Source: Escherichia phage LLS
Reading direction: 5' to 3' (one strand)
DNA length: 42,883 nt
Sequence record: PQ299149
Within the stretch, counting starts at the first letter, position 1; every line of letters starts with the position of its first letter. The notes beneath the pieces were generated by a model that was not told the origin of the DNA, made no database searches, and saw only the letters and a program-made list of their open reading frames with translations. The translations under genes were made by a program, and so were the position numbers. Shown here one piece after another: positions 18,975 to 20,065 of this stretch.

Positions 18975-19612
18975 GTGGATTCGAAGTTTATAACAGCGCT
19001 GGAAAATTGCTGGTTGATTCACAAAACAGGTCGACACTTTTTTATGATCAGCGTGCGCTCGGTGCAGTGACTGACAAAGGTTATTACCGCGTGGATAGCC
19101 CGTTCGGAAACGGAAGCACGCTGGGTATTACCCAGCCGCAATTCTGGAATGATGGGAATTTGCGCTGGCTGCAGCTGGATACAAATAAGTATGGCTTACC
19201 AGGCGCTGACCTTCTGGAAGACAATGCGGGCAGTATGATACGCACGTCCAGAAACGTTGGAATGCAAAGCGGATATCTGGATGTTTTCGACAGCGCGGGG
19301 AATCTTATCTGGAGCGCCGCCTCGGCATCGAAAATGCCGCGCGTGGTGGGCTTTTTCGACGTGCCTGCCAATTACGATCTGCAGAACAATACATTTGCGA
19401 TAAACCTGGGTTTTAATCCGTGGATTCTGGTTAACAACTGCCCAGGCAACCTCAGTGACGACGGAACTGTCGTTGGTTATTCAGGAATCGTACTTAAATG
19501 GACAGGCTCACAGCTGCAGGGGAGGTACATCACAAAAAATCAGCGCAACTGGAGCCAGACACTTCAGGGGCGAGGGCTACGAATTCCCATCGCTCAGTTT
19601 GTCGGAATTTGA
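18971..19612 (+). CDS. Hypothetical protein (possible tail/fibre accessory)
   Basis: ATGA overlap with upstream ORF; 213 aa; no family recognised. Confidence 0.5.
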   Translation: MSGFEVYNSAGKLLVDSQNRSTLFYDQRALGAVTDKGYYRVDSPFGNGSTLGITQPQFWNDGNLRWLQLDTNKYGLPGADLLEDNAGSMIRTSRNVGMQSGYLDVFDSAGNLIWSAASASKMPRVVGFFDVPANYDLQNNTFAINLGFNPWILVNNCPGNLSDDGTVVGYSGIVLKWTGSQLQGRYITKNQRNWSQTLQGRGLRIPIAQFVGI

Positions 19613-19939
19613 TACGGGCGGGACGCGCGGGTATTGAGTAGCGATCATGTTTTGCTTCACACCTTTTGCAGGTTCGAAGCGGTATACGACATCAAGCTTA
19701 TCCGTTTTCTTATAACAGATATTGCTTAGCCGCTTATTTAAATGTCGGCTGAAAATGCCATTGCTGCTATCTGAAATTACGTTAACTTCCCTCGTGGCAC
19801 AGTCGATATTTACGTGAATATCTCCCCCCAGAGATAAGCGCGCCGCATCCACCGGGTAATCCATTTTAAAGGCATAGTCTCTGTCTTTATCGGCACAGCC
19901 AGACGCCAGCAAAAGTGCCACGGCGAATAATCGTTTCAT
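19577..19939 (-). CDS. Small lipoprotein (candidate Cor/Llp-like superinfection exclusion protein)
   Basis: N-terminus MKRLFAVALLLASGC is a textbook signal peptide with lipobox; AGGAA RBS about 8 nt upstream; convergent with the tail operon. Confidence 0.6.
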   Translation of the reverse strand: MKRLFAVALLLASGCADKDRDYAFKMDYPVDAARLSLGGDIHVNIDCATREVNVISDSSNGIFSRHLNKRLSNICYKKTDKLDVVYRFEPAKGVKQNMIATQYPRVPPVSNSDKLSDGNS

Positions 19940-20006
19940 TTCTACATTCCTGTATCTGCGGGAATATCCATTTTATTCGAGTTTAAAAAATAGTCAGATT
20001 GATAAG

Positions 20007-20047
20007 AGCGATCAATTTTACATTATTGATCGCTTTAAACGATCGTT
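20007..20047. promoter_or_regulatory. GATC-containing palindromes in the lipoprotein / tail-fibre divergent promoter region
   Basis: AGCGATCAAT-N8-ATTGATCGCT (20007-20034) and AACGATCGTT (20038-20047): three Dam sites within 40 bp upstream of the fibre gene. Confidence 0.4.
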
Positions 20048-20065
20048 ATTATCGTGAGGTAGTTC

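Follow-up and report, generated by a model that had tools for sequence, protein, structure and literature searches.

A candidate superinfection-exclusion lipoprotein with a predicted TonB-like fold in the receptor-binding cassette of Escherichia phage LLS

We analyzed a stretch of 42,883 nucleotides from Escherichia phage LLS (sequence record PQ299149), referred to here as the window and numbered from its first letter. Here, we describe a small lipoprotein gene, a candidate superinfection-exclusion gene, that lies between the tail genes and the tail-fiber gene stf of this phage, together with the receptor-binding genes beside it and a conserved DNA element upstream of it that contains three GATC sites.

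The lipoprotein gene and its cassette

The lipoprotein gene occupies 19577..19939 on the minus strand and encodes 120 amino acids (aa) with the N-terminus MKRLFAVALLLASGC. As the original prediction had it, the open reading frame (ORF) ends inside the last ORF coupled to J (18971..19612), which its 3′ end overlaps by 36 nt, and a ribosome-binding site, AGGAA, stands 7 nt 5′ of its ATG. Codons 1 to 15 specify the signal peptide and lipobox, with the codon for Cys15 at 19895-19897; a core resembling the C-terminal domain (CTD) of TonB spans residues ~26-90 and is followed by a tail modeled with low confidence. About 100 distinct relatives retain the full-length ORF, and comparison with HK639, UMNK88, L008, L014, and L017 gave proportions of nonsynonymous differences (pN) of 0.05-0.21 and of synonymous differences (pS) of 0.59-0.73 (saturated), with a ratio of nonsynonymous to synonymous substitution rates (dN/dS) of ~0.04-0.09. 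The ORF is a genuine gene under strong purifying selection. Its homologues fell into 53 clusters, all from Enterobacteriaceae and all labeled "hypothetical," and the family is evidently small, as a profile search of 1.84 billion protein representatives yielded no more than 21 clusters, defined at 50% identity. Pfam, NCBIfam, and PADLOC, scanned with the lipoprotein and its two neighboring receptor-binding-protein-like ORFs, gave nothing useful, and their PHROG matches were confined to families of unknown function.

The claim of a lipoprotein signal peptide also stood up: the N-terminus has K2 and R3, a FAVALLL core, and the lipobox A-S-G-C15 followed by Ala at position +2, and a PROSITE-like lipobox rule accepts 100 of the 105 distinct proteins of the family. 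In an alignment of 20 sequences, the signal peptide varies while Cys15, Cys47, Cys75, and a D-Y-P motif are invariant; across the family, two further Cys residues besides that of the lipobox are retained in 98 of 100 members. In Escherichia coli, a lipoprotein whose +2 residue is not Asp is sorted to the outer membrane. The family has Ala, Ser, or Thr at this position and never Asp, so outer-membrane sorting is predicted.

Existing annotation treats the gene unevenly. The record of HK639 (NC_016158) omits an intact, conserved 120-aa lipoprotein gene at 5166-5528 (minus strand) and annotates a 52-aa plus-strand ORF, HK639_26 (5470-5628), which runs across the control region. Four database proteins of 196-271 aa (P0061, P0062, P0063, and P0065) carry a C-terminal SIP-1-like domain behind an internal stretch resembling a signal peptide, and are probably overextended gene calls rather than true N-terminal extensions.

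LLS is a phi80/mEp043-like temperate phage, with head and tail genes 93-96% identical to those of Flotzy, Eeyore, mEp043, mEp213, and phi80. Behind J, phi80 and mEp043 carry gp22 (100 aa), gp23 (224 aa), cor, a terminator, and stf, whereas the window has an ORF of 100-102 aa, an ORF of 213 aa, the lipoprotein gene on the opposite strand, and stf. The central tail fiber, a J-like protein (15208..18672, plus strand), is 92% identical to phi80 J over 1,153 aa and diverges at its extreme C-terminus. The next gene (18672..18974, plus strand), which encodes ~100 aa if the ATG overlapping the J stop codon is used (the ORF listing starts it at 18666), matches phrog_7961 and appears to specify an accessory receptor-binding protein (RBP) of the RBP-2 type. 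The 213-aa ORF (18971..19612, plus strand) resembles RBP-1, a receptor-binding protein of the YncD/PqqU type, and its homologues carry PF28254/DUF8377 according to precomputed Pfam tables. Nucleotide identity to phi80 runs as far as 18569 and returns exactly at the ATG of stf at 20066. The segment swapped relative to phi80/mEp043 (18570-20065, 1.5 kb) comprises the J tip, the two RBP genes, the lipoprotein gene, and the intergenic element, and its counterpart in phi80 comprises the J tip, gp22, gp23, and cor. The exchange of cassettes is exact, and the lipoprotein gene therefore occupies the cor slot.

The cassette takes in the last 34 codons of J (18570-18672). The residues they encode are unlike those of phi80 but 62% identical to the J tip of the virulent T1-like phage IsaakIselin (Bas10), ending in RVRMGLW where IsaakIselin has RVRMGLF. 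Because the tip covaries with the type of RBP encoded downstream, this pattern suggests that it serves as the docking site for the small RBPs. The same gene order, with J, an ORF of ~100 aa, one of 213-216 aa (DUF8377), a convergent lipoprotein gene, and stf, recurred in 12 of 12 prophage loci inspected, namely that of E. coli UMNK88 and eleven from E. coli, Enterobacter, Kosakonia, Franconibacter, and a metagenome, one of which (L016) has lost J.

Kinship with SIP-1 and a proposed role in superinfection exclusion

Searches of phage genomes with tblastn found homologues of the 213-aa protein and of the lipoprotein side by side in virulent T1-like phages (IsaakIselin, IME347, Henu7, NBD2, PHB17, JohannLBurckhardt, and Klebsiella relatives), and homologues of the lipoprotein in 37 further records of T1-like Escherichia and Klebsiella phages. 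In IsaakIselin, QXV80561, QXV80560, and QXV80559 form one operon adjoining J, and Munder et al. (PMC12124388) named the three genes RBP-2, RBP-1, and SIP-1. The 100-102-aa ORF of the window is 37% identical to QXV80561 (E 7e-20) and the 213-aa ORF 47% identical to QXV80560 over its full length (E 1e-68), while the lipoprotein matches QXV80559 with 33% identity over 80 aa (BLASTP, E 1e-14) and gp53 of IME347 with 37% identity over 105 aa (BLASTP, E 3e-21). Beyond sequence homology, the lipoprotein shares with SIP-1 and gp53 an export signal, both conserved Cys residues, a D/G-YP motif, the TonB-CTD-like fold, and RBP-1 and RBP-2 homologues as neighbors directly downstream of a J-like gene. It differs from them in the invariant lipobox Cys, since that residue is missing from the T1-like homologues, whose signal peptide is of the ordinary cleavable kind, so that the lipid anchor sets the temperate branch apart. 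Compared with SIP-1, it also carries a 25-residue tail rich in Pro and Ser, and its gene belongs to temperate lambdoid phages, is inverted relative to the RBP genes, and has its own upstream element. The window protein is very probably an exported, lipobox-bearing, TonB-like homologue of SIP-1.

These relatives point to a receptor. Dependence on YncD has been shown by experiment for IsaakIselin, with earlier work cited for IME347, and loci downstream of J have been proposed to encode RBPs together with cognate exclusion proteins (Maffei et al., PMC8594841). In models of PqqU (= YncD) that are AlphaFold2 predictions only, the two RBPs sit at the outer face of the transporter and SIP-1 at its periplasmic face, and the likeness of SIP-1 to the TonB C-terminus has been remarked upon (PMC12124388). 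A criterion of >30% identity at full coverage has since been used to define the YncD RBP family, and the temperate phages NpA and NpB have been assigned to YncD from the structure of this locus (bioRxiv 10.64898/2026.04.02.716166). By the same measure, the 213-aa protein of the window falls within the family. The predicted receptor of LLS is YncD/PqqU, not FhuA, OmpC, or LamB, the three named in the original prediction.

The structural model suits a TonB-dependent receptor. An AlphaFold2 model built on 43 family sequences has a confident core at residues 28-90 (predicted local distance difference test, pLDDT, 82-94), in the order helix, two strands, helices, and strand, and low confidence in the signal peptide and C-terminal tail. 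The modeled fold clearly matches TonB CTDs, including those of TonB bound to FhuA (2grx) and to FoxA (6i97). Compared with all PDB sequences, the family profile found FusB/TonB as its sole match (E 0.012), with the invariant DYP aligned on the YP motif of TonB. From the model, we predict a TonB-CTD-like fold for the core of the lipoprotein. In contrast to the CTDs of E. coli TonB and Pectobacterium FusB, the protein comes without a proline-rich linker, an N-terminal membrane helix, or an ExbBD partner, and it has two extra conserved Cys residues and a predicted lipid anchor in the outer membrane.

The occupants of the cor slot in other phages offer a second comparison. Cor (phi80, N15, HK022, and mEp phages) shares with the window protein the position between two post-J ORFs and stf, the character of a small outer-membrane-type lipoprotein, and the same 50-bp GATC element upstream at equal distance and in equal orientation, a positional and regulatory equivalence, not protein homology. 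Membership of the Cor family was rejected (BLASTP against phi80 Cor, E 0.78), and tblastn with the window proteins matched cor-carrying phages through flanking genes only. Cor is also shorter (77 aa versus 120 aa), is paired with a different RBP pair and with FhuA, and is codirectional with J, whereas the window gene is convergent. Similarity in sequence or fold to Llp of T5 or to Rtp45 was likewise not found, and tblastn with the lipoprotein matched no T5-like, T1, or Rtp record. Llp and Rtp45 are nonetheless structurally characterized, small disulfide lipoproteins encoded beside a receptor-binding gene, and they act in the mode that we propose for the window protein: Llp on FhuA (PMC9586334) and Rtp45 on LptD (PMC12685063) each engage the receptor of their own phage from its periplasmic side and alter its outer loops. 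The idea of a Cor- or Llp-type exclusion candidate thus stands as far as it concerns a lipoprotein beside receptor-binding genes, in the cor slot, linked to a cassette, and homologous to SIP-1, and falls where it implies membership of either the Cor or the Llp family.

Given these comparisons, we consider it reasonably probable that the lipoprotein acts in superinfection exclusion as a mimic of the TonB CTD with a lipid anchor, inherited with RBP genes of the YncD/PqqU type. We favor exclusion because of the cor slot, the linkage to the RBP cassette, the homology to SIP-1, the synteny, the lipobox, the selection on the gene, the covariation of the J tip, and the precedents of Llp and Rtp45. 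Under this proposal, two small RBPs on the J tip would lead the phage to YncD/PqqU, a TonB-dependent transporter that would serve as its terminal receptor. A promoter of its own would drive the lipoprotein gene leftward, opposite to the late operon, and this opposing orientation leads us to presume expression from the prophage in the lysogen. The product would acquire its lipid, reside in the inner leaflet of the outer membrane, and bind YncD/PqqU on the periplasmic face, with the TonB box as the probable site, holding the receptor in a state that the RBPs of the cassette could not use. Lysogens, and cell debris left after lysis, would then cease to adsorb the phage itself and other YncD-dependent phages. 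We infer the outer-membrane location, the identity of the receptor, the binding to it, and the exclusion from homology, gene context, and modeling.

Several points weigh against this proposal. SIP-1, the closest relative with a proposed function, owes that function to an AlphaFold-based proposal and nothing else. Identity to the Drexlerviridae proteins is moderate (33-47%), and receptor specificity may therefore have shifted. Lipid anchoring is not essential to the family, as the T1-like homologues dispense with the lipobox Cys, and expression in the lysogen rests on gene orientation and a weak consensus promoter. Confidence in the model is low outside residues 28-90, and homology to TonB at the sequence level is marginal, as the E value of the PDB profile match attests. 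Pfam TonB_C did not match the family even at an E value of 10, and no genuine TonB appeared in the profile search of 1.84 billion proteins; on account of these two results, we regard the protein as a mimic of the TonB domain or a very remote homologue, not as a member of the TonB family.

The fold itself invites a broader reading, in which the lipoprotein is a general decoy that binds the TonB boxes of many transporters and excludes TonB-dependent phages and colicins at large, at a cost to iron and cofactor uptake. The model does match TonB CTDs at large (2grx and 6i97) with the conserved YP motif aligned, but the gene is always coinherited with one type of RBP, which implies a matched receptor, cassettes of the FhuA type use the unrelated Cor, and a broad block of TonB would presumably be costly for the lysogen; we therefore think a general decoy unlikely. 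Lambda Bor and Lom are lysogenic-conversion genes, and the lipoprotein gene might be a moron of this kind, with no part in phage exclusion, that acts, for instance as an outer-membrane lipoprotein, in serum resistance, adhesion, or envelope stress from a tolerated insertion site among the tail genes, as the frequent presence of morons at tail-gene boundaries, the gene's own orientation and putative promoter, and the lack of a match among the PADLOC defense models would allow, but this has very little probability in our view, since a homologue in the same operon as the RBP genes is retained by virulent T1-like phages, for which there is no lysogenic state, the edges of the cassette fall together with host-range determinants, and a TonB-like fold suits a TonB-dependent receptor.

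The conserved element upstream of the gene

Upstream of the lipoprotein gene lies a conserved 50-bp element (19998..20047) composed of four half-sites of the ATTGATCG/CGATCAAT type and including three GATC sites, at 20010, 20028, and 20041. The original prediction placed these sites within two palindromes (20007-20047), and the positions are confirmed: a 10-bp inverted repeat is formed by AGCGATCAAT at 20007-20016 and ATTGATCGCT at 20025-20034, and the palindrome AACGATCGTT follows at 20038-20047. The count of GATC sites is uninformative by itself, because three of them within 36 bp are expected by chance somewhere in the 43-kb window with P ~0.87, and GATC density was accordingly rejected as a signal. 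A second triple cluster (30 bp) lies at 25739-25768, inside an ORF with a Bro-N domain (25544-26305).

Conservation is the more informative property. The element is ~94% identical between the window and HK639 (counted manually on an alignment), while the adjacent gene has a pS of ~0.72, and relatives from E. coli, Enterobacter, and Kosakonia keep it even when the encoded protein shares no more than 63% identity. Unexpectedly, blastn located the element close upstream of cor in both mEp043 and phi80, where it is inverted and so has the same orientation relative to the exclusion gene. An exact 25-base pattern occurred in 88 viral contigs, and in 90 of its 92 occurrences the next gene begins 70-74 nt downstream and is either cor or that for the TonB-like lipoprotein. 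In sets gathered independently of the pattern, by protein similarity and with up to four substitutions allowed in the element, its distance was constant in 52 of the 53 distinct regions upstream of cor that contained or lacked it, and in 57 of the 71 distinct regions upstream of the lipoprotein gene. In the 14 lipoprotein loci without it (L227, L228, and L233 among them), the match to the query does not begin until residue 3 or 4. We take these to be variants like that of L019 (3870-4000), which has a different signal peptide (MKARLLLTAITFFMFGC) and a GC-rich terminator of the phi80 type in the gap before stf. The consensus sequences of the cor and lipoprotein elements are ~77% identical over 52 nt without gaps, with the half-sites conserved and the spacers varying in sequence but not in length.

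The same half-site architecture was recovered with a relaxed pattern in P2-like prophages (L392 at 11238-11272 on the minus strand, L405, L407, L417, and L425), where the element lies between the genes for tail-fiber assembly and the tail sheath (FI-like), with a GC-rich terminator ~110 nt later and no convincing ORF between the two. Such a copy may represent an orphan promoter, a small RNA, or what is left of a lost moron. Comparison of the P2-like copy with the phage collection by blastn gave no match, and the matches to a 15-base pattern in the genome collection were all chance ones, from unrelated phyla.

In phi80 and mEp043, the element precedes cor, and both cor and its terminator lie between it and stf. 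The element therefore belongs to the exclusion gene, and the earlier view of a control region shared with the tail-fiber gene is not sustained. Because cor has it too, and because the half-sites are kept while the spacers diverge at fixed length, we consider that it most likely binds a protein and controls the promoters of exclusion genes. Scans with consensus sequences for OxyR, Fur, FNR, CRP, LexA, Lrp, DnaA, IHF, PdhR, H-NS, ArgR, and TyrR found no convincing site. A candidate sigma-70 promoter at 19970..19997 on the minus strand (CTGACT, 16 nt, TAAAAT), picked out by a consensus scan at a level not above the regional chance rate, is where we would place the start of lipoprotein transcription; read by eye, a putative -10 hexamer (TAAAAT) lies 34 nt after the element for the lipoprotein gene and an extended -10 (TGgTATTGT) at 35 nt for cor. 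The 5′ leader of the lipoprotein mRNA would contain a short hairpin (19946..19965), one arm of which holds the AGGAA, with arms conserved and loop variable among relatives. On the opposite strand, the same positions form a terminator-like hairpin followed by a T-rich run. The leader hairpin might limit translation or stop late transcripts.

Methylation could add a layer to such control. GATC methylation might set the binding of a regulator or of SeqA, resulting in replication-coupled or phase-variable expression of the exclusion gene, and the placement of the GATC sites within the half-sites makes an involvement of Dam or SeqA possible. The GATC cores are inside conserved half-sites, the central one is nearly invariant in 109 distinct upstream regions, the spacings of 18, 13, and 31 bp would put the sites on approximately the same face of the helix, and the phage carries, as had been claimed, a Dam-family adenine methyltransferase of its own (35064..35951, plus strand; PF05869, E 1e-44) in the replication region; an N6_N4 methylase (39440..40492; PF01555) is also encoded, between the gene for the Q antiterminator and those for lysis. 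However, a clade of nine cor loci has lost both outer GATC sites and keeps the rest of the element, the third site is lost in L015, and GATC clustering is ordinary in the window. No GATC was found embedded in an OxyR or Lrp site, as in phase-variation switches of the pap, agn43, or gtr type, the best matches (10 of 16 positions for OxyR and 11 of 15 for Lrp) lying within chance for 12 motifs tried. We hold methylation control to be a fairly improbable addition to the protein-binding role.

We give similarly little credence to the idea that the element has no regulatory role and insulates stf as a hairpin in the RNA or a weak rightward terminator, or that it is a conserved linker for recombination between mosaic modules. 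The plus-strand RNA folds into a 12-bp stem (-18.4 kcal/mol, z -4.2), G-U pairs are tolerated on the plus strand only, relatives without the element (L019 and Franconibacter) have a GC-rich terminator in the same gap, and the element does lie at a mosaic junction. Covariation within the inverted repeat is weak and not decisive. Yet in phi80 and mEp043, where the copy sits upstream of cor, neither direction shows a T-run and a separate canonical terminator stands after cor, which weakens the reading of the inverted repeat as a terminator, and the retention of half-sites around diverging spacers of fixed length in the lipoprotein, cor, and P2-like copies is unlike a hairpin loop or a linker. More speculatively, the protein-binding element might be a portable, methylation-sensitive operator found in phi80-like lambdoids and in the moron slot of P2-like phages, which switches genes for surface modification or exclusion and is read by a host or phage protein; a TonB mimic driven by it could block the transporter by occupying the TonB box, a mechanism distinct from that of Llp and Rtp45. 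We regard this wider scheme as a long shot.

Beyond the element, the invertible tail-fiber gene of the original prediction was recovered as a 1.9-kb segment between 57-nt inverted repeats (20566-20622 and 22459-22515, 82% complementary), which carries two alternative tail-fiber C-termini, Phage_tail_C_2 on the plus strand and Peptidase_S74 on the minus strand, and lies beside a Hin/Gin-type invertase gene (22579..23136). A further pair of genes, Peptidase_M78/IrrE-like and helix-turn-helix (ImmA/IrrE type), is located at 24296-25279 on the minus strand, between a DinI-like gene and the integrase region.

Significance for temperate phages and their hosts

Three features described here appear to be new, namely the lipoprotein branch of the SIP-1 family, the exact exchange of its cassette for the cor cassette, and an upstream element common to two unrelated exclusion genes. 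In the literature on HK639, Flotzy, and relatives, on regulation of the cor promoter, and on TonB-like prophage exclusion factors, we found nothing on the lipoprotein gene or the element, and no paper that reports any of the three features. The function of the SIP-1 family is already a published prediction, so far for T1-like phages only, and the window protein is its relative in a temperate phage. Our analysis thereby offers a function and a predicted target for a gene that is labeled "hypothetical" in the records examined and unannotated in HK639.

Host-range cassettes consisting of a J tip, two RBPs, and a matched exclusion factor appear to cross phage lifestyles, being known so far from virulent T1-like phages and moving as a unit also among temperate lambdoids of E. 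coli, Enterobacter, Kosakonia, and Franconibacter. If the proposed function is correct, lysogens are expected to be resistant to therapeutic phages that depend on YncD and may take up pyrroloquinoline quinone less well, and a lipid-anchored mimic of the TonB domain would represent a simple natural inhibitor of a TonB-dependent transporter. The element shared by two unrelated exclusion genes provides a defined starting point for the study of how prophages regulate exclusion.

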